DNA of 64,000 nucleotides from NCBI GenBank assembly GCA_036526135.1, contig DATCZA010000011.1:17570-81569 (forward strand), read 5' to 3'. How positions within the stretch are numbered: the first letter of the stretch is position 1; each line of letters starts with the position of its first letter. This DNA is from Pseudomonadales bacterium (GTDB lineage Bacteria; Pseudomonadota; Gammaproteobacteria; Pseudomonadales; Azotimanducaceae). The notes under the pieces are model-generated. The model saw only the letters and a list, made by a program, of their open reading frames with translations. It was not told the DNA's origin and did no database searches. Made by a program: the position numbers and the translations under genes. Below, one piece after another: positions 13,776 through 47,811 of the stretch.

Positions 13776-13790
13776 TGTAGTTTTACTACA
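13776..13790. promoter_or_regulatory. HexR-type operator candidate (TGTAGT-TTT-ACTACA, perfect 6-3-6 inverted repeat)
   Basis: Perfect palindrome read directly from the sequence. Its last base is the A of the hexR ATG. Confidence 0.7.
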
Positions 13791-14651: not shown

Positions 14652-14987
14652 GTGAGCGTGGATCGGATCAGCGGGCGACGGATTTACTGTCGCGTTCTGA
14701 CCGGGGGCGAGCTCGGCGCGGGCAAGGGCATCAACAAACGGGGCGGCGGCCTCTCCGCCCTGGCCGACAACCCACGCACGCTCGCCCGGGTAGCGCTGTT
14801 CCGTGGCGTGCATCCCGAACTCTTCGAGACCGAGCATCTGGACTACGAGCTCATCAACGAAGCCGCCGTCACCTGGCTCGCGCACAAGGGCGCCGTAAGC
14901 AGGGGGGATCGAGTCATTCTCTCCAAAGGCGACTACCGTAACGTGCAGGGCGGCACCAACACACTGAAAATACTGGAGGTCGCCTGA
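14652..14987 (+). pseudogene. pykA: Internally deleted pyruvate kinase (pykA-type) remnant, 111 codons, still an open frame
   Basis: ..RVLTGGELGAGKGINKRGGGLSA matches the PykA segment ..GGPLSNNKGINKLGGGLSA. It joins directly to ..NPRTLARVALFRGVHPELFE...GDRVILSKGDYRNVQGGTNTLKILEV, which matches the PykA C-terminal end (..RTLNLTALYRGVTPVHFD...GDLVIVTQGD..GSTNTTRILTV). The first ~180 residues and ~190 internal residues of a normal PK are missing. hexR-pykA adjacency matches E. coli. The stop overlaps the next ATG (TGATG). Confidence 0.65.
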
Positions 14988-17004: not shown

Positions 17005-17065
17005 CCCGCGTCCTCGAAAATCTGAGACGTCTACACCCTTCAAACGCTGAATAGCGCAAGCTTAC

Positions 17066-17083
17066 GGGCCCGTTCCCGGGCCC
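17066..17083 (+). terminator. GC-rich hairpin downstream of gap (weak terminator candidate)
   Basis: GGGCCCG-ttcc-CGGGCCC stem-loop about 60 nt after the gap stop. Only a short CTTT follows, so intrinsic-terminator status is uncertain. Confidence 0.3.
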
Positions 17084-17217
17084 GCGGCCTGCTTTGAGCG
17101 CTCAGTCACACACCGCGCGGCACGATTCGTCAAGACTTGCGCCGGAACAGGGACAAACGCGGGTGGACTGTGGAGACGCGAGAGGCATTCCACGCACCGC
17201 GTCATTAGGTGTTCGAG

Positions 17218-17748
17218 ATGCCAAAGACCCCAATAATCGCATTGCTGACTGCGCTGGCGTGCCTGTGCTGGTCGCCGGTTTCGGCCGACGACGTTTCCCG
17301 CAAGGAGATGCGCAGCCTCGACGAGCAGGTTCAGGAAATCAAATCCGACGTGCTGAGCATCGCCGCGGAACTCGACCAGCTCGAGGAGAGGCTGCTCTTT
17401 CCGTCCAACACCCAGCTGACCGTCTTCGTCGCCATCGGCGACGGGACGGAGTCTTTCCGGCTCGACTCGATCCGGCTCGGCATCAACGATGCGCTCGCCA
17501 CTCACCACATCTACAGCTTCAAGGAACTCGAGGCGCTGCAGCAGGGAGGCGTTCAGCGTCTCTACATGGGCAACCTGCCCATCGGCACTCACGCGCTGGA
17601 GGTTTCCGTGCTGGGCAAGCTGCCGAGCGGCAAGGACTTTGCCCACGCCGAGCGCTTCACCTTCGACAAGGGCATAGACCCGGCTCTGATCGGCATCACC
17701 GTTGACCCGGGCTCCGGCAAGGCCCCGATCGCCCTGAAAGACTGGTAG
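17218..17748 (+). CDS. Secreted protein with N-terminal coiled coil, function unknown (first gene of the Agl/Glt-like operon)
   Basis: MPKTPIIALLTALACLCWSPVSA signal peptide, then a heptad-like segment (MRSLDEQVQEIKSDVLSIAAELDQLEERL) and a beta-rich C-terminus. GTG 17209 is an alternative start. Confidence 0.7.
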   Translation: MPKTPIIALLTALACLCWSPVSADDVSRKEMRSLDEQVQEIKSDVLSIAAELDQLEERLLFPSNTQLTVFVAIGDGTESFRLDSIRLGINDALATHHIYSFKELEALQQGGVQRLYMGNLPIGTHALEVSVLGKLPSGKDFAHAERFTFDKGIDPALIGITVDPGSGKAPIALKDW

Positions 17749-17750
17749 CC

Positions 17751-19631
17751 ATGACCAGACCCCTCGCCTGGACCATCGGGTTGCAGCTGGCCTTGATGCT
17801 GCTTTGCAGCCCGGCGCGCGCCGATGACGTCCGCGACCTGTATTTTGGCGAGGCGTTGTTCCAGGCCGGTCAAGGCAAGTACTTCGAAGCGCTGGAACGA
17901 CTCGACGCGGAACTCGGCCAGCACTACGGTCTCGACGAGCCGGAACTGGACACCCTGCACCACCACATCAGGGAAGCCGAGTTCTTCGTCGGCGACTTCG
18001 AGCTCAACTACCGCATGCATCATCGCGCGGGCCGCGCCATCAGCGCGGTCTTGAACGGCGACGTGGATCAGTCCGTGCGCAACGAAGCCGCCTACAGGCT
18101 GGCACGCATTCACTTTCAGAAAGCCCAGATGGCCGATGCCCTGGAAGCGCTTGCGCGCATCGAGGGATCCATGCCTGCGCGCGTTCGAGACGACGTGGAG
18201 TTTCTCCGCGCCAACGTCTACCTCGCCGTCGGCCGCTCGGCCGAAGCCGCCGAGGTGCTCCGGGAGCTGCAGGGAACGAAGGGGCTCACCGGCTTTTCCG
18301 AGTTCAACCTGGCGGTTGCTCTGCTTCAGGACGGCCGCACGGCCGAGGCCCTGCAGCAGCTCGACCGGGCAGGTCAGGTCGACGCCAGGGACGCCATGAC
18401 CCACTCCATTCGAGACAAGGCGAATCTGGTGCTCGGCGGCATGCTGCTGGAGTCGGGGCGGTTCGAGGAGGCCCGGGCGCCTCTGGAGCGCGTTCGCCTG
18501 GAAGGGCCCATGTCCAACGAGGCGCTCTTAGGGGCCGGCTGGGCCGAGCTATCCGGCGAGAACTTCGAGCGCGCTGTGGTGCCCTGGTCCATTCTGGCCG
18601 ATCGCGACCCGACGGACGCGGCCGTGCAGGAAGCGAAGCTGGCACTGCCATATGCCTACAGCCGCCTGAACGTTCACGGACGAGCGGCCGTTCTCTACGG
18701 GAAGGCGCTCGACACCTTCGGCCGGGAGCTCAACAAGCTCGACGCCTCCATGGGTAGCATCGAGAACGGGTCGTTCCTCGAGGCGCTCGTGCGCGAGGAG
18801 ATCCACCAGGACAAGGATTGGGTGGTTCGCATGCGCAGCCTGCCCGAGACCCCCGAGACCTTCTACCTGGTAGAGCTGCTCGCCTCCCACGATTTCCAGA
18901 CCGCTCTGCAGAACTACCTGGATCTGGAGGACCTGCGAAAGAAACTCGCCACCTGGCAGGCGAGCTTCGACGCCTTCGACAGCGTCATAGCCGCCCGGGC
19001 CGACTACTTCGAGCCCCTGCTCCCCGAGGTCGACCAGACGTTCCGCGAGCTCGACTCCCGCTTTCGCGTTCGCGTGGAGCAGTACGAGCTGCTGGTGAAA
19101 CGCATGCAGGACCTCCTGGTCATGCCCCGTCCCGAGTTTCTGGCCACCACCGAGGAGAAGGTCCTGAGCACGGGTCTGACCGCCATGGACGAGGCTCTTG
19201 GCGGGGTGGGCCGCGACGGGAACGACGAGCTACGTCAGCGCATCCGCCGTCTGGAAGGGATCATCACCTGGACGCTGCACACGCAGTACGACGATCGGCT
19301 GACCCGCTTCTACGAGAATCTCCAGGACATGCAGGGATCCGTCGCCCTGCTCAAAGAACACTACCAGGCGTTCGTCCGCACCCGCCAGGCCGCAACGCTC
19401 AGCTACCAGGGATACGACGCGCCCATCAAGCGCCTTCGCGGGCGGATTCATCAGGCTTCCGCAAAGGTGGACCAGCTCATGGCCCGTCAGGGCCGGATGC
19501 TCGAGCAGGTTGCCATGGCGGAGCTGGAGTCACGGCAGCGGCGCCTGGTGAACTACCAGCACCAGGCACGATACGCCCTGGCAGACAGCTATGACCGCGC
19601 CACCCAGGCGCAGTACGCGGAGGAGCCGTGA
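17751..19631 (+). CDS. Secreted TPR-repeat protein with long C-terminal coiled coil
   Basis: Signal peptide MTRPLAWTIGLQLALMLLCSPARA, TPR-like helical repeats in the N-terminal half, and an extended coiled-coil-like C-terminal half. There is a 2-nt gap from the previous gene. Confidence 0.8.
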   Translation: MTRPLAWTIGLQLALMLLCSPARADDVRDLYFGEALFQAGQGKYFEALERLDAELGQHYGLDEPELDTLHHHIREAEFFVGDFELNYRMHHRAGRAISAVLNGDVDQSVRNEAAYRLARIHFQKAQMADALEALARIEGSMPARVRDDVEFLRANVYLAVGRSAEAAEVLRELQGTKGLTGFSEFNLAVALLQDGRTAEALQQLDRAGQVDARDAMTHSIRDKANLVLGGMLLESGRFEEARAPLERVRLEGPMSNEALLGAGWAELSGENFERAVVPWSILADRDPTDAAVQEAKLALPYAYSRLNVHGRAAVLYGKALDTFGRELNKLDASMGSIENGSFLEALVREEIHQDKDWVVRMRSLPETPETFYLVELLASHDFQTALQNYLDLEDLRKKLATWQASFDAFDSVIAARADYFEPLLPEVDQTFRELDSRFRVRVEQYELLVKRMQDLLVMPRPEFLATTEEKVLSTGLTAMDEALGGVGRDGNDELRQRIRRLEGIITWTLHTQYDDRLTRFYENLQDMQGSVALLKEHYQAFVRTRQAATLSYQGYDAPIKRLRGRIHQASAKVDQLMARQGRMLEQVAMAELESRQRRLVNYQHQARYALADSYDRATQAQYAEEP

Positions 19632-22600
19632 TGCCCGTCGTTCTGGCCGCCATGCTGCTCCTTGCGCTGCTCGCCGGTTGCGCGAGCCGCCCCGATGGCG
19701 GAAAGACCATCGAGCAGCTGCGCGGCGTGAAGCCCGACATGACCGAGGTGGCCATCGACGACAGCCTCAACAAGGCGCTGGCCAGCTACCGGCACTTTCT
19801 CAACGAGACGCCCGTCAACAACAAGACGCCGGACGCGATGCGGCGCCTTGCGGATCTGCAGATCGAGAAAGAATACGGCGTCATCGGCGACGGCAGCGGC
19901 GTGACGCTCGCCGCACCCGCGCGTCTGGCGATGGAGGATGCGGTGGGCGCCAGCACCGAAGGTGATGCCGCCATCGCCGATCACTCCGAGCCGGAAGCGG
20001 AATTCGAGCGCCGCGCGACCGCGCCGTTGGCGCTGCCGTCCGCAAACTGGGCGCGTGCGGCCGAGGCTGGTCTGCCCGACGGGCTGTCTGCAGCAGCCAC
20101 CGCAGGCCCGCTGGAAGCAATCGCCACCTATCAGAAGATCCTCGACCGCTACCCGTACTACGAGCGCAACGATCAGGTTCTCTACCAGATGGCGCGGGCC
20201 TACGACGAGCTTGGCGAGCCGGACAAGGCCATGGAGGTCATGGACTGGTTCATCAACGACTACCGCTACTCTCACTACGCTGACGAGGTGTACTTCCGCC
20301 GCGCCGAGTACTTCTTCGTGAGGAAGCAGTATCTGGAGGCCGAAGAGGCCTACTCGGCCGTGGTCTCCATCGGTTCCGGCTCGCAGTTCTACGAGCTGGC
20401 TTTGTACAAGCTGGGCTGGACGTTCTACAAGCAGGACTTCTACGAGGAAGCCCTGCACCGGTTCATGGCGCTCCTGGACTACAAGCAGTCCATGGGCTAC
20501 GACTTCGACCGGGTGCTGGCCGAGCAGACATCGGATCCCGACGGGGCCGGCGATGAAGAGGCCGCCGAGGATGGCGATCTCGACGGGCAGACGGGCGCCG
20601 CGGTCGCGGCCGTCGACGTGCCGGCCGCCGACGCCACCGGGGAAGCCGAGCCCGACGAGGACGATGACCGCCGCGTGGCGGACACCTTCCGCGTGGTGAG
20701 CCTGTCCTTCTCCAACCTGGGCGGACCGCAAGTCATCAACGAGTATTACGCCACCTACGGCAACCGCAGCTACGAAGACCGGATCTACAGCAACCTCGGC
20801 GAGTTCTTCCTGAGCAAGCTGCGCTACAACGACGCGGCCAAGGTCTATCGTTCCTTCACTGAGCTGCATCCCTTCCACAGGATCGCGCCCCATTTCAGCA
20901 TGCGCGTGGTGGAGATTTACGCCAAGGGCGATTTCGGCCAGCTGGTAGTGGAAGCCAAGAAAGACTTCGCCCGTCGCTACGGCCTCAACGCCGAGTACTG
21001 GCAGCACGCGGAGATCGAGAAGTCGCCCGACGTCCTGAGCTACCTGAAGACGAACCTCAAGGACCTCGCCAGCCACTATCACGCCCTCTACCAGATGGAA
21101 GAGCTCGAAAAGGAGCGGCCCGGGAACTACGCCGAGGCGCTCACCTGGTACCGGGAGCTGCTGGCATCCTTCCCCACCGACGACGACTCCGCGGCCACCA
21201 ACTACCAGCTTGCCGATCTGCAGTTCGAAAACGGCGACTTTACCGAAGCCGCCGTGGAGTATGAGCGCACGGCATACGACTACCCGGCTCACGAGAAGGC
21301 TTCGGCCGCCGGCTACGCTGCCGTCTACGCCCACCGAGAGCACCTGAAGAGCATCGAGGCACCGCCGGGCAGCGAGCTGCGAGTCGCCGCCGTGGACAGC
21401 ACCATGCGCTTCGTCGACGCCTTCCCCGCCCATGACCAGGCGGCCACCGTGCTCGGCGCGGCGACGGAAGACCTCTACCAAATGAAGCGCTTCGAGCCGG
21501 CCATCACCGCGGGCAGGCGGCTCATCGAGTCCTACCCGTCGGCCGGCGAACCGCTGCATCTTTCCGCGTGGACGGTGGTTGCGCACGCTTCGTTCGACCT
21601 GGCCGTCTATCCCGACGCCGAGCAGGCCTACGCGGAGGTGCTGGCTTTGACGCCTGAAGCGGACGAGGGGCGCCAGGAGCTGTTCGAGAACCTGGCCGCC
21701 TCCATCTACAAGCAGGGCGAAGCAGCCAGCGCCATGGACGATCACCGGGCGGCGGCCGATCACTTCCTGCGCGTGCGCACCGCAGCGCCCACCTCGGCGT
21801 TCCGACCCGCCGCAGAGTACGACGCAGCAAGCGCCCTGATGAAGCTGGAGAGCTGGGCCGAGGCAAGCGCCGTGTTCAGGGACTTCCGCGCGGCGCACGA
21901 AGATCACGAGCTTCAGCCCGAGGTGACCAAGCAGCTGGCCTTCGTCTATCGGCAGGCCGGCGAGCTGACCCGATCCGCCGAAGAGTACGAGCGGGTCGCG
22001 GCGGATGCTCTAGCCGACGGCGACGAGACGCTGCGCCGGGAGTCCACCCTGCTGGCGGCAGAGCTCTACGAGGAGGCGGGCAGCCCGAAAGCACTCGCGG
22101 CATTCCAGCACTACGTCGAGACCTTCCCCGAGCCCATGGAGCTCGCGGTGGAGGTCCGCTTCAAGATCGCCGGCATGCACAAGGCCGACGGCGACGAAGC
22201 CGCCTACTCAGGCGAGCTGCGCCAGATCGTCGCCATCGACGCGGACGCCGGTGCTGCACGCACGCCACGCATTCGTTATCTCGCCGCGCAGTCGGCGCTG
22301 GTGCTGACCGAGGAGCGCTTCACCCACTTCACCGAGCTGCGGCTGAGCCAGCCGTTCGAGAAGAGCCTGGCGGAGAAGCGCAAGCGCATGGACGCGGCCA
22401 TGAGCGCCTACGAGGCGCTGGTCGACTACGAGGTGGCAGACGTGACCGCCGCGGCAACCTACTACATGGCAGAGATGTACGGCCACTTCGGCGAGTCGCT
22501 GCTGAGCTCCGAGCGGCCCAAGGACCTCAACGAGGAGGAGCTCGCGGAGTACGAGCTCATCCTGGAAGAAGAGGCGTTTCCGTTCGAAGAGAGCGCCATC

Positions 22601-22813
22601 GAGGTGCACGAGAAGAACATCGAGCTCATGGTTGCGGGGACTTTCAACACCTGGATCGAGCAGAGCCTCGGCCAGCTTTCGCAGCTGATGCCCGGGCGCT
22701 ACGCGAAGAGCGAAATCAGCACCGGCTTCGTGGGGCCCGTCGAAGCCTACGCCTACCGGACGCCCGTTCCGATACCAGCAGAGGAAACAGAAGATGTATC
22801 GGCCGCATTCTGA
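19631..22813 (+). CDS. Large TPR-repeat lipoprotein (GltD/AgmU-position analogue)
   Basis: MPVVLAAMLLLALLAGCAS lipobox, about 1060 aa of TPR-like repeats, and an acidic low-complexity insert (..DPDGAGDEEAAEDGDLDG..EAEPDEDDD..). ATG 19631 overlaps the upstream TGA (TGATG) and follows AGGAG. Confidence 0.85.
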   Translation: MPVVLAAMLLLALLAGCASRPDGGKTIEQLRGVKPDMTEVAIDDSLNKALASYRHFLNETPVNNKTPDAMRRLADLQIEKEYGVIGDGSGVTLAAPARLAMEDAVGASTEGDAAIADHSEPEAEFERRATAPLALPSANWARAAEAGLPDGLSAAATAGPLEAIATYQKILDRYPYYERNDQVLYQMARAYDELGEPDKAMEVMDWFINDYRYSHYADEVYFRRAEYFFVRKQYLEAEEAYSAVVSIGSGSQFYELALYKLGWTFYKQDFYEEALHRFMALLDYKQSMGYDFDRVLAEQTSDPDGAGDEEAAEDGDLDGQTGAAVAAVDVPAADATGEAEPDEDDDRRVADTFRVVSLSFSNLGGPQVINEYYATYGNRSYEDRIYSNLGEFFLSKLRYNDAAKVYRSFTELHPFHRIAPHFSMRVVEIYAKGDFGQLVVEAKKDFARRYGLNAEYWQHAEIEKSPDVLSYLKTNLKDLASHYHALYQMEELEKERPGNYAEALTWYRELLASFPTDDDSAATNYQLADLQFENGDFTEAAVEYERTAYDYPAHEKASAAGYAAVYAHREHLKSIEAPPGSELRVAAVDSTMRFVDAFPAHDQAATVLGAATEDLYQMKRFEPAITAGRRLIESYPSAGEPLHLSAWTVVAHASFDLAVYPDAEQAYAEVLALTPEADEGRQELFENLAASIYKQGEAASAMDDHRAAADHFLRVRTAAPTSAFRPAAEYDAASALMKLESWAEASAVFRDFRAAHEDHELQPEVTKQLAFVYRQAGELTRSAEEYERVAADALADGDETLRRESTLLAAELYEEAGSPKALAAFQHYVETFPEPMELAVEVRFKIAGMHKADGDEAAYSGELRQIVAIDADAGAARTPRIRYLAAQSALVLTEERFTHFTELRLSQPFEKSLAEKRKRMDAAMSAYEALVDYEVADVTAAATYYMAEMYGHFGESLLSSERPKDLNEEELAEYELILEEEAFPFEESAIEVHEKNIELMVAGTFNTWIEQSLGQLSQLMPGRYAKSEISTGFVGPVEAYAYRTPVPIPAEETEDVSAAF

Positions 22814-23498
22814 GCCGGGCCCCCGCATCGTTCTGGGCGGCCTGATCCTGCTGGCCGCGCTGCTGGTCGGCGGCTGCGCCAGCACGGGGCCCGCCACCAG
22901 GCCAGCCCTGTCGAAGGAGGCAGGCCCGACGCCCACCCGGGAACGTCCCGCCCGGCCGGCACGAGTGAAAGTGGAGCCCAACATCGGTTTCACCGTGACG
23001 GAGGTCGTCGCCCTGTCGAGCGACGTCCGGGAGATGTACCACGAGGCGCTGGCCCTGCTGGCGCGGAACGATCTGGAGGCCGGCATCGCGCTGCTTGTCA
23101 CCGTCACGGAAAGGTCTCCCGACGCAACCGCCCCCTTCATCGATCTCGGCATCGCCCATCGCAGGGCGGGCGAGCGCGACAAGGCGATCGCGAGCTTCAC
23201 CGAGGCCCTGGCCTCGACACCCGATCATCCTGTGGCCCATAACGAGCTGGGCATCACCTACCGTGAGCTCGGCCGCTTCGACGAGGCGCGACGCAGCTAC
23301 GAGCAGGCCCTGACCATCTATCCCGGCTTCCATTACGCGCGACGGAACCTCGCCGTGCTCTGCGACATCTACCTGGCCGACCTCGCCTGCGCTCTCGAGC
23401 ACTACGAGCGATACAGCCAGGACATTCCCGACGATCGGGAAGTCGAGATCTGGGTCGGCGACGTCCGCAACCGGATGCCCGTGACGGACGAGGAGTGA
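22794..23498 (+). CDS. TPR-repeat lipoprotein (GltE-position analogue)
   Basis: ..LILLAALLVGGCAS lipobox followed by three clear TPR units (..AIASFTEALASTPDHPVAHNELGITYRELGRFDEARRSYEQALTIYPGF..). It overlaps the previous gene by 20 nt. Confidence 0.85.
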   Translation: MYRPHSEPGPRIVLGGLILLAALLVGGCASTGPATRPALSKEAGPTPTRERPARPARVKVEPNIGFTVTEVVALSSDVREMYHEALALLARNDLEAGIALLVTVTERSPDATAPFIDLGIAHRRAGERDKAIASFTEALASTPDHPVAHNELGITYRELGRFDEARRSYEQALTIYPGFHYARRNLAVLCDIYLADLACALEHYERYSQDIPDDREVEIWVGDVRNRMPVTDEE

Positions 23499-23503
23499 CC
23501 AAG

Positions 23504-23836
23504 ATGAACCGTCTCCTGAAACTGCCCCTGTATTTCTGTCTGAGCGCGCTTCCCGCGGCGGCCTCTGTGGCCCAGGAAGGCGACAAAGCCATGTCGGGCA
23601 TGTCGATCCTCGGCAACAACGATGCTCCCAAGGCGCTGGTCATCGTGCCCTGGAAGAGCTCGGAGATAGGCGACGGCATCGACGTTGCCAACCTGCTCGA
23701 CGGCCGGGCAAGAGCAGTGGACAAAGTCGTGTTCGCAAGAGAGCTCGGCTACTACGAGCTTCGCGTCGACGCGCCCGAGAAATCGCTTTCCATTCGGGAA
23801 GGCGCCCAAATGGTGAACCCGGTCGCCAACCAGTGA
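23504..23836 (+). CDS. Small secreted protein, unknown function (GltF-position analogue)
   Basis: MNRLLKLPLYFCLSALPAAASVAQ signal peptide; 110 aa. GGAGGAG lies 9 nt upstream. GTG 23495 is an alternative start that overlaps the upstream stop. Confidence 0.65.
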   Translation: MNRLLKLPLYFCLSALPAAASVAQEGDKAMSGMSILGNNDAPKALVIVPWKSSEIGDGIDVANLLDGRARAVDKVVFARELGYYELRVDAPEKSLSIREGAQMVNPVANQ

Positions 23837-23973
23837 ACGGCCGGCGTCGAAACGTGAGGCTCATCAACTGGCAGAACAACCGAACGGCGAAGGGTGCGCC
23901 CCATCACGTTCACAATCATCTCAACACTTTAAGTTGCGTCTGATTCAAGGCGTTTTGCGGAGAGGTTTACGCA

Positions 23974-24636
23974 ATGGATTTCGTGTACTCAATCGTTGAA
24001 TTCTTTGCCACTGGCGGTGCTTTCATGTACCCGATCCTGCTGGTCTTTGCGGTAGGCGCGGCGATCGCCATCGAGCGGTTCGTGACGCTGACCCGGGTGA
24101 CCACCAAGAACCAGACGGCATGGAGCGACATTCAGCCGGTGCTGTCCCAGGGTGACTTCGAGAGGGCACGCAAGATGACGGGCCAGGACCAGAGCCCCAT
24201 CTCGCGTCTGCTGTCCATGGGTCTGGCTCTTCAGGGTGCGGTGCGACGCCGAGAGGACGTCGAGATCGCCATGGAAGAGGGCATGATGGAAATCATTCCT
24301 CAGCTGGAAAAGCGCACGCCCTACGTCGCCCTAGCCGCGAGCATCGCAACGCTGCTCGGACTGCTGGGCACGATCATGGGCCTGATCCAGGCATTCACGG
24401 CAGTGGCCAACGCCAACCCGGCGGAGAAAGCCGACCTGCTGTCTGCCAGCATCTCGGTCGCCATGAACACGACGGCGTTCGGGCTGATGGTCGCCATCCC
24501 CCTGATGGTGGTGCACGCCTTCCTGTCGACCAAGACGAACGAGATCGTCGACGGCATGGAAATGGCGTCGGTCAAAGTGCTCACCGCCATCTCGATGCGC
24601 GCGCGTCGCGGCGAGGTAACCGCGAAAGCAGCCTGA
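23974..24636 (+). CDS. MotA/TolQ/ExbB family proton channel protein
   Basis: 220 aa with three TM segments and the ..LGLLGTIMGLIQAF.. / ..AMNTTAFGLMVAIPLMVVHAFL.. family signature. GGAGAGG RBS. Confidence 0.9.
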   Translation: MDFVYSIVEFFATGGAFMYPILLVFAVGAAIAIERFVTLTRVTTKNQTAWSDIQPVLSQGDFERARKMTGQDQSPISRLLSMGLALQGAVRRREDVEIAMEEGMMEIIPQLEKRTPYVALAASIATLLGLLGTIMGLIQAFTAVANANPAEKADLLSASISVAMNTTAFGLMVAIPLMVVHAFLSTKTNEIVDGMEMASVKVLTAISMRARRGEVTAKAA

Positions 24637-24677
24637 AGCGACGCATTCCAACGGGGTAGACGGAGGCTAAGGGACAG

Positions 24678-25199
24678 ATGGCCAGAACCCATCACTATCG
24701 GCGGCGCGTGACGGAGCCTACGGAGCTCGACGTGACCACCTTTCTCAACCTGATGGTCGTGCTGGTGCCGTTTCTGCTCATCACGGCGGTGTTCTCGAGG
24801 ATCACCATCGTAGAGCTGGATCTGCCCACCTCGGCCAGCTCGCCGTCGCCGAACGATCCGACCTTCCGGGTGGAGGTCATCGTGCGTGACAGCGGGCTGG
24901 AGATCACCAACGGGCGGATGGTCATTGCGGCCATACCCAAGGTGGAAGAGGAGTATGACCTTCAGACCCTTGGCGGGCACATGCTCGCGCTGAAGCACGA
25001 TCACCCTGACATCGACGAGGCCTCCGTTCTGCTGGAACCGGAAATTCCCTACGACTATCTGATTCAGGTGATGGACGTGGTGCGCAGCGCCGAGATCCAG
25101 CCGGAAGCTAGCGAAGGTAATGACGGTGACGGCGAAGTCGAGCAGCAGCCGACCCAGCTCGCGCTGTTCACCCAGATCGCCATTGGAGACGCGCCATGA
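24678..25199 (+). CDS. ExbD/TolR family protein, variant with Asn in place of the conserved TM Asp
   Basis: N-terminal TM region LDVTTFLNLMVVLVPFLL aligns with ExbD INVTPFIDVMLVLLIIFM. Asn occupies the Asp25 position. The periplasmic domain is ExbD-like. Confidence 0.85.
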   Translation: MARTHHYRRRVTEPTELDVTTFLNLMVVLVPFLLITAVFSRITIVELDLPTSASSPSPNDPTFRVEVIVRDSGLEITNGRMVIAAIPKVEEEYDLQTLGGHMLALKHDHPDIDEASVLLEPEIPYDYLIQVMDVVRSAEIQPEASEGNDGDGEVEQQPTQLALFTQIAIGDAP

Positions 25200-25708
25200 A
25201 GAGCTCCCGACGCATCAAGCGTATGGACAAGACGCGAAAGCGCTCCAAGTTCGTAACGAAGATGAACCTGACGTCGCTCATGGACGTCTTCACCATCCTG
25301 GTTTTCTTCCTGCTGGTGAACTCGGGCGCAGCCGACCCGCTGGAGTCTCCGAAAGACGTCAAGCTGCCGGAGTCGCGCGCCGAGTCCAAGCCCAAGGAGA
25401 CCGTGGTCATCTACATAAGCCCGGAAACCGTGGTGGTGCAGGGACAGCCCGTGGCCATGGTTGCCGACATTCTTGCAGCATCCGGCGAGGACGTCGTTGC
25501 TATCAGGGACAGGCTGGCGGCCATCAAGGGCCAGATCATCGGTCCGAACACGCAGCAGGTAGCGGGCAGCCAGGAAGTGACGATCATGGCCGACAAGTCC
25601 ATTCCGTTCAGCGTGGTGAAACGAATCATGTCCACCTGCACCAGCGAGGGATACGGGAACATCTCTCTCGCCGTCGTGCAGAAGGACGCCCAGGTCGCGG
25701 CCATCTGA
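25196..25708 (+). CDS. ExbD/TolR family protein (canonical TM Asp present)
   Basis: MNLTSLMDVFTILVFFLLV retains the Asp. There is an ATGA overlap with the previous gene. Confidence 0.88.
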   Translation: MKSSRRIKRMDKTRKRSKFVTKMNLTSLMDVFTILVFFLLVNSGAADPLESPKDVKLPESRAESKPKETVVIYISPETVVVQGQPVAMVADILAASGEDVVAIRDRLAAIKGQIIGPNTQQVAGSQEVTIMADKSIPFSVVKRIMSTCTSEGYGNISLAVVQKDAQVAAI

Positions 25709-25729
25709 TCGGGATGAGCGAAGGTAGTC

Positions 25730-27181
25730 ATGTCTGATCGTAAAACACCCGGCAACCCGGCGACCTCGAAGGATCAGAGCGCTGATCGCCCGTTCGAGGA
25801 ACGGTCGACGGGCGACGCGCTCAGCGAAAGGCGCCGATCAATCACGGCGCAGAAGGAAGAGGCGCAGCACAGGCTCGACCAGCTGGAGGCCGAGGCCACG
25901 GCCGCCCGGCGCGAGCTGAGCGAGCTTGCCGCCCGCAAAGAGCATTTCAAGCTTCTCGAGCAGGCGGTGGCGGGCCTGGAAGCGCTCTCGGAATCCGGTG
26001 CTGCCGATCTCTTCTGGGGGGCCGACGCGCCATCCTCGATGCTGCGCGTCGAGGACGCCAGAGCGCGCATCGCCAGATTCAGCTCCGAGGTCGAGCAGGT
26101 CGAAGCCAAGCATCAGAAATTCGTCAGCGACGTCGCGATGCAGCAACAGGCTCAGGAGGATCTCGAATACGATCTCTTCCAGATCGAGCAGCAGGAAGAG
26201 AGCCGGCGCCAGGAGTGGCAGGTCGAGCGCGACGAAACCGTCCTTCCCGTGCGCCGCATCGCCATGCCGTGGATGCGCGGCTTCGAAGAAGACGAGCGCT
26301 TCAAGAAGACCCTGGCGGGGTCCACCGCAGCGGCGCTGCTGCTCGCGCTCATCATTCCTCTCATCGACCTGCCCATGCCGGAGAAGGAAGAGCTCGTGGA
26401 GGTCCCCGAGCGCTTCGCCAAGCTGATCCGGCAGCCACAGAAACCCGTGACGCCTCCGGTTCAGGAGCAGATCGCCGAGGTCGAGCCGGTCAAGCCCAAA
26501 GAGGTAAAGCCCGAGAAGGTCGTCAAGCCTCAGCCCAAGCGAGAGGTGGCGGTGCAGGCAAAGCCGGCGCCCAAGAAGAACGTGAACGCCGTGGGCATTC
26601 TGGCTTTCCGGAAGAACCTCTCGGATCTGCGTCAGAATCGGCCTTCGGCCAATCTCGGATCCAAGGCCCGGGTCAGCAACGCCGGCGACACCGCCCTGGA
26701 TCGTCCCCAGCGCAACATGGTCACCGCCCAGGGCACCGGTTCCAGCGGCGGCATCAACCTGGCCGACGTGAGCCGGGACATCGGCGGGGGCGGGGTCGGC
26801 CTGTCCGAGGGCGTGATGCTCACCCAGGCGGAGAGTTCCATCGGCGGCGGCGGGCCCGACGGCCGGCCGGGAGGCACCGGTGGCTTCGCAGGACGCACGG
26901 ATGAGGAAATCCAGATCGTCTTCGACCGCTACAAAGCAGCCCTTTATCGCCTATACAACCGCGAGCTCCGGAAGGACCCGACGCTGCGCGGTCAGATGGT
27001 CTTGCGACTGACTATCGAGCCCGACGGCTCGGTGTCGCTGTGCCGCGTGCAGTCCTCTGACATGGATGCGCCGAATCTGGCAGAGCGGGTCGTCTCAAGC
27101 GTTAGCCGCTTCGACTTCGGGCCCAAGGATGTCCCGCCAGTCACCATTCTCTACCCCATCGATTTCCTGCCCACCGCGTGA
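25730..27181 (+). CDS. Bitopic TonB-like protein with AgmX/PglI (GltG/GltJ)-type C-terminal domain
   Basis: About 195-aa cytoplasmic coiled-coil N-terminus, a single TM (..STAAALLLALIIPLI..), a Pro/Lys-rich linker (KPVTPPVQEQIAEVEPVKPKEVKPEKVVKPQPK), a Gly-rich stretch, and a C-terminal YRLYNRELRKDPTLRGQMVLRLTIEPDGSVSLCRV...VTILYPIDF resembling the AgmX/PglI C-terminal (TonB_C-like) family as I recall it. Confidence 0.75.
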   Translation: MSDRKTPGNPATSKDQSADRPFEERSTGDALSERRRSITAQKEEAQHRLDQLEAEATAARRELSELAARKEHFKLLEQAVAGLEALSESGAADLFWGADAPSSMLRVEDARARIARFSSEVEQVEAKHQKFVSDVAMQQQAQEDLEYDLFQIEQQEESRRQEWQVERDETVLPVRRIAMPWMRGFEEDERFKKTLAGSTAAALLLALIIPLIDLPMPEKEELVEVPERFAKLIRQPQKPVTPPVQEQIAEVEPVKPKEVKPEKVVKPQPKREVAVQAKPAPKKNVNAVGILAFRKNLSDLRQNRPSANLGSKARVSNAGDTALDRPQRNMVTAQGTGSSGGINLADVSRDIGGGGVGLSEGVMLTQAESSIGGGGPDGRPGGTGGFAGRTDEEIQIVFDRYKAALYRLYNRELRKDPTLRGQMVLRLTIEPDGSVSLCRVQSSDMDAPNLAERVVSSVSRFDFGPKDVPPVTILYPIDFLPTA

Positions 27182-27508
27182 CCGGCGAGCGCCCGCTCAG
27201 CGCGGGCCCGCCAGCAGCGCGCGGCAATCCAGCAGTCGTATGACTTGTGACGAATGCCGCATGGCGCAGGTGGACTCTGCTCCGGCTTCGACACGCGGGC
27301 TTGGAGACACGCTCAGGGGTGTGAAGGCGATCACCACGGGCGCAGCCCTGGTCGGCAATAGTGCGGTTTCGGGACAGCGCACCGCTAAGCGGTGCGGCAA
27401 CGAACGTAAGCCAGCGTGAGGCTCGCGACGGTGAGGCTTTCAAGGTCGAAGCGCACGGCAACGTGCGGGAAAGATACCTGCAGCCAAACCAAGCGGTGTC
27501 GTGGAGAG

Positions 27509-30500
27509 ATGTCGGCAAGTTCGAAACAAAACGTGAAGCGCAAGCTCGCTCTTGCGGTGATGAGCACCCTCGCCATGTGGGTGCTCGCCGCTGCACCGGC
27601 GTGGGCGGAGAAGTGCTCTGATTACGTCGATGGGATAATCGACGGAAACGCCGTCCCGGCCCCCGGACAGCTCACCGTGGACCGTGACTGCTACATTTCC
27701 AACTACGACCCCCTCGACACCAACATCACCTTCATTCACAACCTGGGCAGCTTCCTGGTCGTGTTCGACAACGTCCGCTTCCGCGGCAACATGTCGTGCG
27801 ACGACGTGGGCGACATTCACAAAGTCTGGTTCTCCGACTCGTCCTCCTACCCCGGCCGGCTGCCCAAATGCTATCGCCTGTGGGAACCCGTGGACGCGGT
27901 CGTCAAAGAGAACCCGCCAGGCCAGACGTTCGTCGTCATCGGCGTTCCGTTCACCTACACCCTGACCATGCCCGTCATGCCGGACGGAGGCCCGGACGTC
28001 CAGGATCTCTACGACCTTCGGATCGTCGACGACCTCACCGCGGGCGGCGCCGACCTGCGGCTGGTCGGCTTCACGAGCTCCATACCTGGTCTGGTGAACA
28101 CGGGCACGGATACGAACCTGGTTCTGGAACACCCTCGCGTGCCCGCCGGGGCGCAGCTGGTGGTCGAGCTCACCGTGGTCGCGGGGGACACGCCGCGCAA
28201 CGCGCCCGGAACCACCTTCACCAACTTCGCTGACTGGACCTTCTACAAGGATCTGCGAAGCGACGGCAGCCCCGTCTTTCTGCCCGGCGACTCGAGCGAG
28301 ACGCCGCCGCTGACCATCGCCGGCCCCGAGCTCACGTTGACGAAGACGGGCCCCGCCACGCTCAACCTGGGCACGTCGGGCGAGTTCACCCTGGACATCC
28401 AGAACGTCGGCAACAGCGACGCCTGGCAGGTGAACGTCGTTGACCTGCTGCCCGACGGCGCCAGCGGCGGCATGTGCGCATCGTCCCCCACGGTGACGAG
28501 CGCGCGGGTATTCGGCCCCAACGGCAACTCGCGGGTCCAGGGCAAAGGCTGGCTGGTGGAGGGCGTCGACTACTTCGTCTCGTTCACCGGCTCCCCGCGC
28601 TGCCAGTTCACCTTCGAGACCCTCTCGCCGGCCGGCGTCATCGCCCCGGACGAGCGCCTGATCATCACCTACGAAGCCGAGCTCGACCCGGACACTCAGG
28701 ACGGCGCGGTGCTCACCAACGTGGCGGGCACCCCCTCCTGGTACGACTCCGACGGCAGCGTTTCAGACCGGCACCTCTACACCGGCTCCCTGACCAACGG
28801 GACCGTCGGCGTGCTTGACAGCGAGGACGCCCACACGCTGACGGCCGAGCTTTCCGGCATCTTCTTCGAGAAGACGGTAGCCAACCTCAGCACCGGCGCG
28901 AACCCTACGGCCACGGCGGCCCCTGGCGATCGGCTGCGCTACACCCTGCGCGTGCAGACGACGGACAGCGCCCTCAACGCGTTCTCCATCGGAGACGACC
29001 TGGGCGCGCTGAACGCCAACGCCGTCTTCGAGCCCGGCTCGCTGGCTCTGGTGGCCAGCTCGATTCCTGCCGGGGCAAGCACCACGAACACCAATCCCAA
29101 CGGCGGGACCAACGGCACCGGGCTGGTCGACGTCAGAAGCCTGAGCCTCGCCGCCGGCAGCGAGCTGACCATTCAGTACGACGTCACCCTGGCGGACGCG
29201 CTGCTCGACGGCTCCGTGGTGTCCAACCAGGCCATACTTTCCGGCGGGTCACTTCAGGTCGACAGCGACGATCCCAACGTGAACGGCCAGTCGGACCCCG
29301 ACGTCTCCGGCGACGAGGATCCCACCCGCGTGCTCATCGAGGTCGCGCCGCCCGCCGCCCTGGTGAAATCGACGACCCAGCCCACCGTGAGCATCGGCGA
29401 GACGTTCACGTACCGGATCACCGTTCCGTCCGCACCCCATGGCACGCCGCTCTTCGACGTCCGGATCACCGACAACCTGGCAGCCGTTGCTGCCGACGTG
29501 GACTACGTGGACGTTTCCCGCGTCTCCGGCCCCGGATCCTGGACCCCGGTAAACACCGGTTCCGGAAACACCCTGGTGATCGAGGATACCGGCGCCGGCA
29601 TCGACATCCCGGCCGGTGAGCAGGTGGTGATCGACATTACCCTCAGATTGACGGACAGCGCTACCAACGTCGCCGGCCTGACGTTCGGCAACACGGCGGC
29701 CTACACGTACAACCAGCTCAACGGCGATGCGAGCAGCGAGCTCGACGGGCTTTCAGGCACCAGCGCGGACATGACCATCGTCGAGCCGCAGCTGACGGTG
29801 ACCAAGACCGGACCGGGGCTGATGCGCGTCGGGCCGCCCGCAACCTTCACCCTGGACGTTCAGAACACCGGCGGAGGCCGTGCGCATTCCGTCGAGCTCA
29901 CCGACGCCCTGCCGAACACCGCCGAGGGCGGCATGTGCGACGCAGCACCCGCAGCCTTCACCGCCCAGATATTTCAGGCAGACGGCGCCACCCCGGTGGG
30001 CCCGGCTCTCGCCCAGGGCGCGGATTTCAGCGTGAGCTTCTCCGGCGCGCCAGCGTGCACGTTCAACGTGGACCTGCTCAGCGCCGCAGCCACCATCGGT
30101 CCCGGTGAGCGGCTGATCATGACCTACCAGGCGCTCCTGGACGCTGACAGCCTGGACGACATCACCCTGACCAACGTGGCGGGCGCCACGGCCTGGTTCA
30201 GCGCGGCCACCAGCCAGGCCCGCGGCTACGCGCCCGAGCTGACCGACGGCTCGGCGGGGATCCTCGACCACGAGGACGAGCACACGATTCTTACCTTCTC
30301 TCCCCTGCTCTCCTTCGAGAAGACGGTCATCAACGTCACCACGGGGGAAAGCCCGGCGATGACGGCCAGCCCCGGAGATCGGCTGAGCTACAGCCTGCGC
30401 GTGATCAATCTGGGTCCGGAACCGCTGGACGATTTCAGCGTCGTCGACGAGCTGGACCGGCTGAACCGGAACCCGGCGTTTCAGCCGGGCACCCTGCAGC

Positions 30501-33500
30501 TCACGGTCGTGCCTGACGGGGCAACGACCGGGGGCACCAGCGCCAGCGGGGGCGCTGCGGGAACGGGATACCTGGAGGTGTCCGGACTGAGCCTTGCCGG
30601 GTCCGGGGGCACCATCGACATCGGCTTCGAGGTCGAGCTCGCGCCCGTGCTCGCCAATGCCAGCCTGGTGAGGAACCAGTCGCAGATCATCGCTCAGGGA
30701 TTCGTCGTCCAGGACAGCGACGACCCGAACAAGAACGACGTGGCAGACCCGGTGATCGTCGGGGACGAGGATCCCACCGAGGTGCAGGTGGAGTCCGCAC
30801 CCGCCTTCGACGTCGACAAGACCTCGACCTACCTGGACGGCGACCCCAACGTGCTGATGGCCGGCGAAACGCTGCGCTACACCATCACCGTGCAGAACGT
30901 CGGTGACGACAACGCGACCAACGCGGTGCTGCGCGATCAGATTCCTGCAAACACCGCCTACGTGGCGGGCAGCACCACGCTGAACGGCGCGTCCGTGGCG
31001 GACGTGGGCGGAACGACGCCCCTGGCCGCCGGCATGACCATCAGCTCGCCTGCCGACAGCGCAGCGGGCGCCATGACGGCGATCGCATCCGGCAGCCGGA
31101 GCAACGTAGCCGTCATCGAGTTCGACGTGGTGGTGGACGCGTCCGCCGTCGACGGCACCGTGCTCACCAACCAGGCCTTCCTTACCGCCACCGCCGGGAT
31201 CATCGACCAGCCCTCCGACGATCCGGACACACCGGTCGCGGACGACCCCACCCGGGACGTGGTCGGCAACCTGCCGCTCATCTACGCGGAGAAATCGGCG
31301 ACGCTGCAAACCGACGGCGGATCTCGCGGCGTCATCGATCCCGGTGACGTGCTCCGCTACACCATCAGCATCTACAACAACGGCTCGGCGGACGCGACGG
31401 ATGCAACGCTCACCGACGCGGTGCCGGTCAACACAACCTACGTGGCCAACACCGTCACGCTGAACGGCCAGCCCGTCGGTCGACCCGATGGGGGCTCGTT
31501 CCCGCTGGCCGGCGGCCTGCCCGTCAGCTCAGCCGACGTGAACCCACCGGTGCCAGGCCCCGGCGCCGGAACGATTACCGCCGGCGAGGTCGCCGTGGTG
31601 CAGTTCGACCTTCGCGTGGACGACGACCTCCCCACGGGGACGCTCATCTCCAACCAGGCCGTCGTGTCTACCGCGGAGGTCGTCGATCAGCTCACGGACG
31701 GCGACGGTGATCCCGCTACGGGGCCCGAGCCCACCGTGGTCGTCGTCGGTCCCGCGCAGCAGCTCAGCATCACCAAGCAGGCGGCCGTGGTGGGAGGCGG
31801 CGCGGCGCTGGCGGGTTCCACGCTCGAATATCTGGTCCGCGTTCGCAACGTGGGCCCGGTGCCCGCGATCGGCGTCAGCCTCGTCGACGACCTGGACTAC
31901 CCCACGGCGAACCAGCTCCAGATGGTGCCCGGCTCGGCAACCGTCAACGGGCAGTCCGTGGCCGCGACCGGCTCGGTGCTGGACATCGCCTTCGGCGACC
32001 TGGACGTGGACGGGACCATCACCCTGCGATTCCAGGCGACGCTCAGCGCAGGGCTAGACGCCGGCACCCGGGTGACCAACCGCGCCGTGGCAACCTGGAA
32101 CGTGAATCAGCAGGTCGAGGCCAGCGTGGCCGTGGACGTCGGCGGCATCGTCGGCGTCGGGGTCCTCAACGGTAGCGTCTGGCACGATGCGAGCTACGAC
32201 GATCAGCTCGACAGCAACGAGCGCGTGCTGGCCGGATGGACCGTGGAGCTGATGCGCAACGGTCAGGTCGTGCACACTACCCAGACCGGCACCGACGGCA
32301 CGTACCGGATCACGGGCCTCGGGCCCAACGCCGCATCCGGCGACAGCCTGTCCCTGACGTTCACCGCGCCCGGCGCGGGGCCCGGCACGGCCCTGCTGGG
32401 TCAGGCCAGCTCGGCAAGCTTCACCAACGGCCTGCAGCGCATCGACGACATCGTCGTGCAGTCCGGCAACAACCTGATGAACCTGGACCTCCCCATCGAT
32501 CCCAACGGGGTGGTTTACGACTCCGTGTCGCGCACCCCCGTTTCCGGCGCGACCCTGACACTGGTGGACGACGTCACCCGCGCGCCGCTGCCGGCCACCT
32601 GCTTCGACGACACGGCCCAGCAGAACCAGGTTACCCGTGCGGACGGCTACTACAAATTCGATCTGAATTTCTCGGACGGCGCCTGCGGCAGCGGCGCGAG
32701 CTACACCATCGAAGTGGCCGCACCCGGCAGCGCGTACACCACGGGCTACTCGGTGCTCATCCCGCCAACGGACCTGAACGCGCCGACGCCGTTCAGCGTG
32801 CCCGGTTGCCCGGGCTCCCTCGACGACGCGGTCCCCGCCACGGGCGAGCACTGCGAGGCTGGACCATCCGAATTCGCACCGCCCACCTCGGTGCAGGCCC
32901 AGAGCTCGGGCACCGCGTACCGGGTGACCGGGCTTGTGTTCGACACCAGGCGCCTACCCGGCTCGGCGCAGATCTTCAACAACCACATACCGCTCGATCC
33001 GATACTCGACGGCGCCGTGGCGATCAGCAAGACCACGCCCATGGTGAACGTCAACCGGGGCCAGCTCGTGCCCTACACCATCACGGTGACCAACACCTTC
33101 GGCGTTTCTCTGCAGGACGTGGCGGTGATCGACCGCTTCCCTCCCGGCTTCCGCTACGTGGAGGGCTCGGCGCGCCTGGACGGGGTGCCGGTGGAGCCGG
33201 CGATGGGCGAGCGCGATCTCGCCTGGGGCGGCCTCACCCTCGCTCCGGACAGCCAGCGCAGCATCAAGATGCTGCTCGGAGTCAGCGCGGGTGTCAGCGA
33301 AGGCGAGTTCGTCAACCGCGCCCAGGCCATCAATACGGTGGGCCAGATCAATCTTTCCGGCGAAGCCACCGCTACCGTGCGGGTGGTGCCCGATCCCACC
33401 TTCGACTGCACGGACGTCACCGGCAAGGTTTACGACGACGGGAACCGCAACGGCCGTCAGGACCTTGACGAGTTCGGCCTGCAGGGCGTTCGCCTGCTCA

Positions 33501-39155: not shown

Positions 39156-39180
39156 CCGTGAAGTCGTGCGGGCCAGCCGG

Positions 39181-39438
39181 TCAGCGTGGCAAGGCGGCTC
39201 GGCCGGTGCGGCGATCTCCGTCGCGCTCGGCGAATTCCATTTCCAGGTAGTCGACGCTCGAGCGAAGGGCCCGCTGCTCTTCCCAGTCTTCCAGCCGGCG
39301 CCGCAGTCCCCGGCTGCGCGCCACGTGCTCGCGCCTCAAGCTTTCCCGCCGGTCGATGCGGGCCTGCAGCCGTCGCACCTGCTCGAGAATGTGAGGCGAT
39401 AACCCTTCCTCGTCGTCTTCGTCGAAAATTTCAGTCAT
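39181..39438 (-). CDS. Small acidic/Arg-rich coiled-coil protein (possibly PA3496-like family)
   Basis: 85 aa: MTEIFDEDDEEGLSPHILEQVRRLQARIDRRESLRREHVARSRGLRRRLEDWEEQRAL... It is divergent from an hdfR-like lysR. The family assignment is from memory and tentative. Confidence 0.5.
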   Translation of the reverse strand: MTEIFDEDDEEGLSPHILEQVRRLQARIDRRESLRREHVARSRGLRRRLEDWEEQRALRSSVDYLEMEFAERDGDRRTGRAALPR

Positions 39439-47809: not shown

Positions 47810-47811
47810 GT

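Follow-up and report, generated by a model that had tools for sequence, protein, structure and literature searches.

A conserved Agl/Glt-type core gene cluster and its linkage to a giant repeat protein and a predicted outer-membrane barrel in a gammaproteobacterium

Results and Discussion

Gene organization of the cluster

A stretch of 64,000 nucleotides from a Pseudomonadales bacterium (assembly GCA_036526135.1, contig DATCZA010000011.1, positions 17,570 to 81,569; referred to as the window) contains nine genes, p1 to p9, which by sequence and gene order constitute a member of the known Agl/Glt "core complex" family, followed on the same strand by two much larger genes, g1 and g2 (Table 1). 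The nine open reading frames (ORFs) occupied 17209/17218-27181 of the forward strand, and their junctions, from p1 to p9, were +2, -4, -20, -4, +137, +41, -4, and +21 nt; g1 and g2 overlapped by 8 nt. An original prediction, made from the sequence alone, had described nine co-directional genes with small overlaps or short gaps, and all of these ORFs and junctions were as described. Its list of secreted proteins, lipoproteins, and channel proteins was also confirmed: signal peptides were found in p1, p2, and p5, lipoboxes in p3 and p4, and Pfam matches to TPR, MotA_ExbB, and ExbD. GenBank already contains these exact proteins under the consecutive accessions HEY5679043-050, from a metagenome-assembled genome (MAG) of an uncultured 'Pseudomonadales bacterium', and labels p9 as 'AgmX/PglI C-terminal domain-containing protein'.

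Table 1. Genes of the Agl/Glt-type cluster and of the downstream pair (positions in the window)
Gene	Position	Strand	Length	Product and features
p1	17218..17748	+	179 (or 176) codons	Secreted protein, ~176 aa; alternative GTG start at 17209
p2	17751..19631	+	626 codons	Secreted TPR protein; positional counterpart of GltC (MXAN_2541)
p3	19628..22813	+	1061 codons	1061-aa TPR lipoprotein (LLAGC); positional counterpart of GltD (MXAN_4870)
p4	22794..23498	+	234 codons	234-aa TPR lipoprotein (LVGGC); positional counterpart of GltE (MXAN_4869)
p5	23495..23836	+	113 codons	Small secreted protein; 'additional gene' of the published core
p6	23974..24636	+	220 codons	AglR-like MotA/TolQ/ExbB channel subunit; PF01618
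p7	24678..25199	+	173 codons	First TolR/ExbD-like subunit; PF02472; Asn24
p8	25196..25708	+	170 codons	Second TolR/ExbD-like subunit; PF02472; Asp30
p9	25730..27181	+	483 codons	GltG-like bitopic transducer; NF033768
g1	27509..34033	+	2174 aa	Secreted giant repeat protein; ATG start, GGAGAG upstream
g2	34026..39155	+	~1709 aa	Outer-membrane protein; OmpA domains and predicted beta-barrel

Correspondence to the published core complex

The core complex of Luciano et al. (2011; PMC3169522) comprises gltC, gltD, gltE, gltG, aglR, aglQ, aglS, and one extra small gene without a myxobacterial homologue, and its genes were found as clusters in several gammaproteobacteria, one betaproteobacterium, Geobacter, and Fibrobacter; the original prediction, which cited this work for such a core in some gammaproteobacteria, was right on this point. 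Table S3 of that paper lists, for Cellvibrio japonicus, CJA_3319 (GltC, 660 aa), 3318 (GltD, 964 aa), 3317 (GltE, 244 aa), 3315 (AglR, 231 aa), 3314 (181 aa), 3313 (AglS, 173 aa), and 3312 (GltG, 323 aa), and the same order was given for Thioalkalivibrio, with a GltG homologue of 535 aa. A gap in the locus tags is found at the position of the extra gene (e.g., CJA_3316 and Tgr7_0540), and the homologues range from 620 to 660 aa (GltC), from 922 to 964 aa (GltD), and from 190 to 244 aa (GltE).

The proteins p2 to p9 (626, 1061, 234, 113, 220, 173, 170, and 483 aa) matched Table S3 one for one in both order and size, and the cluster order was gltC-gltD-gltE-(extra gene)-aglR-aglQ-aglS-gltG, with one TolQ/ExbB-like protein (p6), two non-identical TolR/ExbD-like proteins (p7 and p8), and a GltG-type bitopic protein with the AgmX/PglI C-terminal domain (p9). 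Therefore, p2 is the counterpart of GltC, to which it corresponds in size and position and which the original prediction had left unnamed. The proposal that the order mirrors gltD-gltE-gltF-gltG with an aglRQS-type motor was correct for GltD, GltE, GltG, and the motor, but not for GltF: since gltF has been reported in Myxococcales and Bdellovibrionales only (PMC3169522) and the small gene has no myxobacterial homologue, p5 is at most a positional analogue of GltF.

The family is known and very widespread, is already annotated as such in GenBank, and is neither rare nor newly recognized. Its function in the groups listed above was reported as unknown in PMC3169522, in which the core was considered unlikely to drive motility by itself, and papers from 2013, 2020, and 2025 still report the role outside myxobacteria as unknown, in agreement with the prediction; no later paper in the library searched deals with it. 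A search of the literature under the locus tags of the published gammaproteobacterial clusters found nothing.

Distribution of the core and its long and short types

Among 8000 candidates scored, 6945 were GltG-like relatives at E <= 0.001; the representative library contained 2859 GltG-like clusters at the 50% identity level, and a GltG-like protein was present in at least 555 GTDB species genomes. The representatives were of two length classes: long forms of ~440-520 aa, which aligned from a cytoplasmic hairpin onward (see below), and short forms of ~300-345 aa, which started just before the transmembrane (TM) helix and had a common 'LPW' motif. The GltG homologues of PMC3169522 were short forms (321-334 aa), and only that of Thioalkalivibrio was near the long-type length.

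A survey of gene neighborhoods, as had been suggested with the original prediction, compared 80 long-type species-level loci with 80 short-type metagenome loci. The long-type loci were derived mostly from Woeseiaceae and other uncultured gammaproteobacteria, together with the cultured genus Lentisalinibacter, and all of their matches were colinear. In every long-type locus with enough upstream DNA (62/62), p1 to p8 were present in the same order; the short-type loci that were long enough to judge contained all nine genes, including p1, also in this order and with 25-62% identity. Since the same order was kept in 62 of 62 species-level loci, the nine-gene arrangement is not due to chance, and the genes flanking the cluster in the window adjoined it in none of the 160 related loci. 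Homologues of p1 were found at the same position in the 62 long-type loci, and with 34-43% identity in the short-type loci; because p1 is also conserved, the core comprises nine genes, i.e., the published seven plus one, and p1. The hairpin was found in the p9 protein of every locus with g1 and g2 and in none of the short-type loci examined.

The short-type cluster of Lentisalinibacter (L167) encodes proteins of 187, 615, 933, 221, 142, 217, 168, 174, and 315 aa, and this genus also holds long-type clusters (L022 and L031). Therefore, the long and short types are paralogous systems that are able to coexist. One MAG carried two long-type loci (L066 and L078). Several long-type loci (L053, L060, L036, L048, L055, L067, L011, and L054) were found in MAGs labeled as Myxococcota, Deltaproteobacteria, Spirochaetales/Spirochaetaceae, Acidimicrobiia, or Rhodospirillales; their similarity to the window equaled that of the Woeseiaceae loci, which suggests binning errors or recent transfer.

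Motor subunits p6 to p8

Significant Pfam matches were detected between p6 and MotA_ExbB (PF01618; 95.9 bits), and between ExbD (PF02472) and both p7 (47.3 bits) and p8 (59.1 bits). On the other hand, the curated NCBIfam models were not reached: p6 scored 55.9 bits with TolQ (cut-off 221) and 36.9 and 40.3 bits with two ExbB models (cut-offs 206 and 135, respectively), while p7 and p8 scored about 28 bits with TolR (cut-off 127) and about 24 bits with ExbD (cut-off 153). By sequence, the closest solved structures to p6 were TolQ (37.9 bits) and then ExbB (31.2 bits), both at about the same distance, and E. coli TolQ and ExbB showed equally weak similarity to the cluster genes (about 55 bits).

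The conservation of motor residues was assessed in 75-79 long-type orthologues per subunit. The TM2 Thr, the TM3 Thr, and the Pro of TolQ were invariant in p6, which has Val or Ile at the position of TolQ E173 / ExbB E176. Asp30 of p8, located at the position of TolR D23 / ExbD D25, was conserved in all long-type (79/79) and short-type (63/63) orthologues and is the presumed proton-binding residue. In p7, the usual membrane Asp is replaced by Asn24, which was invariant in 77 long-type orthologues; the short-type orthologues had Asn in 41 of 47 sequences and Asp in the other 6. The motor of Myxococcus xanthus has been modeled as AglR5-AglQ-AglS with a heterodimeric plug (2025 AlphaFold model paper), and the D28N mutation of AglQ abolishes function. 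By analogy, a heteromeric 5:1:1 unit with a single protonatable Asp would be the most likely form here, in which p6 presumably forms the pentamer. An anti-phage defense system was also considered and rejected, PADLOC giving superfamily-level matches to ZorA alone (17 bits) and nothing further that would indicate Zorya or defense.

Transducer p9

The score of p9 with the NCBIfam model of the AgmX/PglI C-terminal domain (NF033768) was 57.4 bits, above the curated cut-off of 40, whereas Pfam TonB_C (23.7 bits; cut-off 24.6) and NCBIfam tonB_Cterm (19.4 bits; cut-off 27.1) were not reached. The AgmX/PglI-like C-terminus of the original prediction was thus recovered as more than a generic TonB_C domain. 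A single internal hydrophobic helix was read from the sequence. In the AlphaFold2 model, built on 24 homologues (alignment A1), p9 consisted of a cytoplasmic helical hairpin (residues 21-167) with a predicted local distance difference test score (pLDDT) above 90, a TM helix (184-211), a disordered Pro/Glu-rich stretch (212-388), and an alpha-beta-beta-alpha-beta C-terminal domain (about 390-480). Overall, M. xanthus GltG is built on this plan too, with two cytoplasmic FHA domains in place of the hairpin.

The top Foldseek matches of this model in the PDB were C-terminal domains of the TonB family (5lw8, 6sly, 2m2k, 7zc8, 2gsk, and 2grx), including H. pylori TonB, HasB, FusB, and E. coli TonB bound to BtuB and FhuA. 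Target-normalized TM-scores were 0.31-0.62 (0.47-0.62 excluding HasB) over 62-122 aligned columns, and the E-values were weak (0.005-0.06) because the query was the whole 483-residue model. The modeled C-terminal domain of p9 has the fold of the TonB C-terminal domain (TonB-CTD).

Secreted and TPR proteins p1 to p5

A signal peptide, a short coiled-coil stretch, and a beta-rich domain were found in p1, for which neither Pfam (permissive search included) nor NCBIfam gave any family. The p2 protein has a signal peptide, Pfam TPR matches at residues ~90-320, and a helical C-terminal half. Pfam TPR matches were also found in p3 and p4, and their lipoboxes (LLAGC and LVGGC, respectively) were read from the sequence. 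Among the NCBIfam TPR models, p3 stayed below the cut-off with the CpoB/YbgF-like model (79.4 bits; cut-off 90.1) and matched a BamD-like model with 70.5 bits, also below its cut-off.

No Pfam, NCBIfam, or PDB match was obtained for p5, which has a signal peptide and a conserved, strand-like motif (MSI.GN...PK.L.IVPWK). By analogy with the pairing proposed for GltF and GltG in Myxococcus, this strand may pair with the TonB-like domain of p9. Sequence searches of the PDB with p1, p5, and p9 gave nothing meaningful, and permissive Pfam searches with p1, p5, the C-terminal half of p2, and the N-terminal domain of p9 gave generic coiled-coil noise alone.

Giant downstream proteins g1 and g2

The g1 protein has a signal peptide and matched Pfam DUF11 (152.7 bits), the DUF11-type repeats of TIGR01451 (210.5 bits, 8 stretches), and the isopeptide-forming fimbrial-type domain of TIGR04226 (94.3 bits); SdrD-B and CarboxypepD_reg-like domains were also present. 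DUF11 was recently renamed CLIPPER and tied to intramolecular isopeptide bonds. Isopeptide and DUF11 domains are typical of mechanically loaded surface proteins, and g1 appears to be adhesin-like. A degenerate OmpA-like domain, suspected by eye in the last ~200 residues of g1, was not supported by Pfam.

The g2 protein has a signal peptide, three OmpA-type peptidoglycan-binding domains (OmpA, 91.8 bits in Pfam), two of which were significant Pfam stretches and the third was read from the sequence, and beta-rich linker domains; OmpA-type models of NCBIfam were matched as well. Its C-terminal ~880 aa, which end in ...LTGAF, are all-beta, and were modeled by AlphaFold2 with ~40 long antiparallel strands, with a mean pLDDT of 59.7 and many blocks of 70-88. 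Foldseek matched it exclusively with large outer-membrane barrels (LptD, Deinococcus SlpA, TonB-dependent transporters, and MtrB); the TM-scores were low, so that the barrel class is supported but no specific family. The region is thus predicted to form a very large beta-barrel. Matches to MtrB_PioB or DUF2490 in Pfam were found in some g2 homologues, and no match to Plug or TonB_dep_Rec was found in g2. The sequence 'EKIAVATVEP' was considered as a TonB box and discarded, not being conserved among 47 orthologues.

When long-type loci with at least 1.5 kb of downstream DNA were searched by tblastn, g1 was found downstream of p9 in 61 of 62; in the remaining locus (L041), g1 was divergent and shared its N-terminal module with the other long forms of g1. 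Of the 45 long-type loci reaching 9.5 kb downstream, 41 contained g2, and the four misses were due to a longer g1. The conserved unit in the long-type lineage consists of eleven genes, not nine. Since g1 and g2 are absent from the short type, the long type is distinguished jointly by the eleven-gene unit and the p9 hairpin.

The length of g1 varied from 2174 aa in the window to at least 3200 aa in L055 and L061, and the extra length was an N-terminal extension that opened with a conserved Cys-containing module (L041, L055, and L061). In five loci, g1 seemed to be separated from p9 by a 5-kb 'insertion', and one locus seemed to lack g1; both observations were explained by an N-terminal part of g1 that was longer or divergent.

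A ninth conserved gene, the long/short split, the cytoplasmic hairpin, and the invariant long-type link to g1 and g2 were not found in the literature. The presence of the core in this genome is unsurprising; the linkage to g1 and g2 is the handle that it adds.

Proposed mechanism

We consider it probable, with moderate confidence, that these genes encode a proton-motive-force-driven, envelope-spanning machine of the Agl/Glt core type, the output of which, in the long type, is formed by g1 and g2. In this machine, p6 is the channel of the TolQ/ExbB/AglR type, and its plug would be a p7-p8 heterodimer in which only p8 has a protonatable Asp; the stoichiometry and mechanism of p6-p7-p8 would follow the M. 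xanthus and TolQR models. Proton flow would exert force on p9, whose TM helix would be docked on the channel, as suggested by the binding of AglR to GltG in M. xanthus. The disordered Pro-rich linker of p9 is placed to cross the periplasm, and the linker and the TonB-like domain may engage p3 in a TPR scaffold under the outer membrane, as in the 2025 AlphaFold model of the M. xanthus system. The scaffold would consist of the lipoproteins p3 (GltD-like) and p4 (GltE-like) and the soluble p2 (GltC-like), with p1 and p5 as putative accessory connectors.

The long-type output module would consist of the g2 barrel, held on peptidoglycan by its OmpA domains, and g1. The motor may pull on or gate g2 in order to export, expose, tension, or reposition g1 at the cell surface, and this handling of g1 would probably serve attachment to particles. 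The modeled hairpin of the long-type p9 is a likely docking site for a cytoplasmic regulator or anchor. In M. xanthus, GltC is modeled under the barrels GltA, B, and H, and GltG and GltJ have been proposed to pull the TonB box of the barrels GltA and GltB, by which the adhesin CglB is unmasked. The g2 barrel and the g1 repeat protein are possibly the counterparts of the GltA/B/H barrels and CglB.

Several observations weigh against this interpretation. Orthology to the M. xanthus proteins would rest on the published phylogeny of identically built clusters. The equivalog models were far from being reached (GltG, NF033760, 32.8 against 650 bits; GltE, NF033758, 36.1 against 225 bits), and p4 and p9 are distant relatives of GltE and GltG, not equivalogs. 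AglQ of M. xanthus depends on an Asp that p7 does not have. The gap between p9 and g1 is 327 nt, and co-transcription is putative, as is the surface exposure of g1; the confidence of the barrel model of g2 is modest, and a conserved TonB-box-like strand was not found at the N-terminus of g2. Short-type loci lack g1 and g2, and no downstream family was common to more than 4 of 30 of them; since their clusters are complete without g1 and g2, this pair cannot serve as the output throughout the family. In the literature to 2025, experimental data were found on no gammaproteobacterial core member.

Comparison with related systems and alternative explanations

Compared with the core of Luciano et al., the cluster has in common the gene order, the sizes, the pair of TPR lipoproteins, the channel with two TolR-like proteins, and the GltG-type C-terminal domain. 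It differs in the conserved p1, which is not on the published list, and in p9, which is of the long form with a cytoplasmic hairpin; the text and the consulted supplements of PMC3169522 do not mention g1 and g2. With the Agl-Glt and Agl-Nfs (spore-coat) systems of M. xanthus, it shares an AglR5-AglQ-AglS-type motor, a GltG-type transducer with a disordered linker, a GltD/E/C-type TPR scaffold under the outer membrane, and perhaps an output through barrels to an adhesin (GltABH and CglB there; possibly g2 and g1 here). On the other hand, p9 has the hairpin instead of FHA domains, GltE is twice the size of p4, the outer-membrane partner would be one OmpA-plus-barrel protein of ~1700 aa, and the place of the VWA lipoprotein as cargo would be taken by the 2174-aa isopeptide repeat protein.

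There is also a resemblance to Tol-Pal (TolQRA-TolB-Pal-CpoB): the proton channels of both are of the 5:2 type and belong to one superfamily, the bitopic transducer combines a long linker with a small alpha/beta C-terminal domain in each, and both systems include periplasmic TPR/coiled-coil proteins and OmpA-type peptidoglycan binding at the outer membrane. It may be asked whether the locus encodes a Tol-Pal-like paralogue for envelope maintenance, in which p9 would be TolA-like, g2 a Pal-like anchor, the TPR proteins CpoB-like, and g1 structural, with no role in secretion or adhesin handling. TolQ was the best match of p6 among both the solved structures and the NCBIfam models, p3 almost reached the CpoB/YbgF model (79.4 against 90.1 bits), g2 contains three Pal/OmpA-type domains, and the evolutionary relationship between Agl and Tol, as motors joining inner- and outer-membrane proteins across peptidoglycan, is emphasized in the 2025 model paper. 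However, the Tol equivalog models were far below their cut-offs (TolQ, 55.9 against 221 bits; TolR, 27.7 against 127 bits; Pal, 39.4 against 125 bits with g2), there was no TolB-like product in the cluster, the 2174-aa isopeptide-bonded g1 has no counterpart in Tol-Pal, and the short-type clusters have no adjacent OmpA partner. The heterodimeric plug (TolR is a homodimer), the three large TPR proteins, and the giant g1 and g2 are further differences. We consider this explanation unlikely.

A different possibility is that the core and g1/g2 are functionally independent neighbors, the former having the same task as in the short-type clusters and the latter being a separate module of an adhesin and its anchor. 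The 327-nt gap leaves room for a separate promoter, and the completeness of the short-type clusters without g1 and g2 also fits, but the adjacency was kept in 62 of 62 species-level loci with p9 identities of 45-57%, whereas the other flanks differed, and the p9 hairpin accompanied every g1/g2 locus and no short-type locus examined. There seems to be little chance that the linkage has no functional meaning. Scans for promoters and terminators in 16500-28000 and 33500-40500 gave counts at or under the shuffle expectation and were therefore uninformative on the limits of the operon(s). A GC-rich hairpin directly after the p9 stop codon was dropped because it was no better than shuffles (z = -1.28).

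In Ton loci, gene orders of the ExbB-ExbD-ExbD-TonB type with TPR proteins are common. An extra Ton-type system, in which p6 to p9 would energize uptake via g2 as an unusual TonB-dependent transporter, would agree with these gene orders, with the TonB-CTD fold of p9, and with the TonB-dependent transporters among the Foldseek matches of g2. The likeness to Ton (ExbB-ExbD-TonB) extends to the motor superfamily and to the presumed force on an outer-membrane barrel. Nevertheless, the curated ExbB, ExbD, and TonB models were not passed, the first two by far, while the AgmX/PglI model was; p9 has a large cytoplasmic domain that TonB lacks; g2 has neither a Plug/TonB_dep_Rec match nor a conserved TonB box; and no gene for a Plug-containing, TonB-dependent receptor accompanies the cluster as a genetic partner. 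The sole TonB-dependent receptor in the window (Plug and barrel; 55045-57393, reverse strand) lies among dioxygenase and carotenoid-oxygenase-like genes; it is not attached to the cluster, being 28 kb away and in the opposite orientation. A Ton-type function is accordingly very improbable. The original prediction had stated that no gene for a TonB-dependent receptor, Pal/TolB, or TolA was attached; this was correct for the receptor and for TolB, but the Pal-like g2 had been overlooked. Its conclusion that the system is neither a classical Ton nor a classical Tol system stood, the curated models being far below their cut-offs (TonB_C, tonB_Cterm, and CpoB were nearer), and none of the findings named with the prediction as refuting it was obtained.

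A gliding-motility engine like that of Myxococcus, suggested by the common motor and core Glt proteins, is hardly credible, since reports of gltA, B, F, H, I, J, and K, by which the core becomes a motility machine, are confined to Myxococcales and Bdellovibrionales, motility was shown to require more than the core genes, most carriers of which are not known gliders (PMC3169522), and neither these seven proteins nor CglB were detected by NCBIfam and Pfam among the eleven products, the GltJ model matching only via the common C-terminal domain (17.4 bits).

With regard to the Agl/Glt-core machine with g1 and g2 as its long-type output, an analogy is offered by the GldLM motor of Bacteroidota gliding and type IX secretion with SprB, in which a motor of the MotAB/ExbBD/TolQR class, driven by protons, acts across the periplasm on an outer-membrane complex handling a giant repeat adhesin. 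This is analogy only: there was no detected homology beyond the motor superfamily, and no type IX secretion signal or genes were found here.

Significance

Since 2011, the core has been known as a widespread complex of unknown function, and also as the evolutionary origin of gliding and of spore-coat assembly in Myxococcus. In one large branch, common in marine-sediment gammaproteobacteria (e.g., Woeseiaceae), the core is invariably accompanied by a predicted outer-membrane barrel and a giant adhesin-like protein. This link provides a concrete and testable output module for a long-standing question, and Lentisalinibacter offers cultured carriers. If the link is functional, force transduction of the TonB/Tol type would be joined to the handling of surface adhesins outside myxobacteria. 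A more specific proposal, that the eleven-gene system of the long type is an undescribed diderm route by which the motor, acting via the p9 arm and the TPR scaffold, would drive the export, unmasking, or tensioning of an isopeptide adhesin of several thousand residues through or on the peptidoglycan-anchored, ~40-strand barrel of g2, is tentative, and we regard it as possible rather than probable; if true, it would show a role of the ancestral Agl/Glt core before Myxococcus gliding.

Neighboring genes and other features of the window

The cluster was preceded by Entner-Doudoroff genes, hexR, and two GAPDH genes, and the eleven genes were followed by a hypothetical gene and ptsP. A scan of the whole window with Rfam gave zero matches. 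A 109-aa ORF at 14658-14987 (forward strand) consisted of the C-terminal domain of pyruvate kinase alone; it was located between a gene for a HexR/RpiR-type regulator (13790-14650) and the tandem GAPDH genes (14987-16003 and 16003-17004), with the Entner-Doudoroff genes further upstream. At 45819-50794, a trio of genes encoded an ATP-grasp protein (D-Ala-D-Ala-ligase-like), a lysine-2,3-aminomutase-like radical SAM protein, and a fusion of N-formylglutamate amidohydrolase with a peptidase-C39-like domain, and may represent a small module for the modification of peptides or amino acids.

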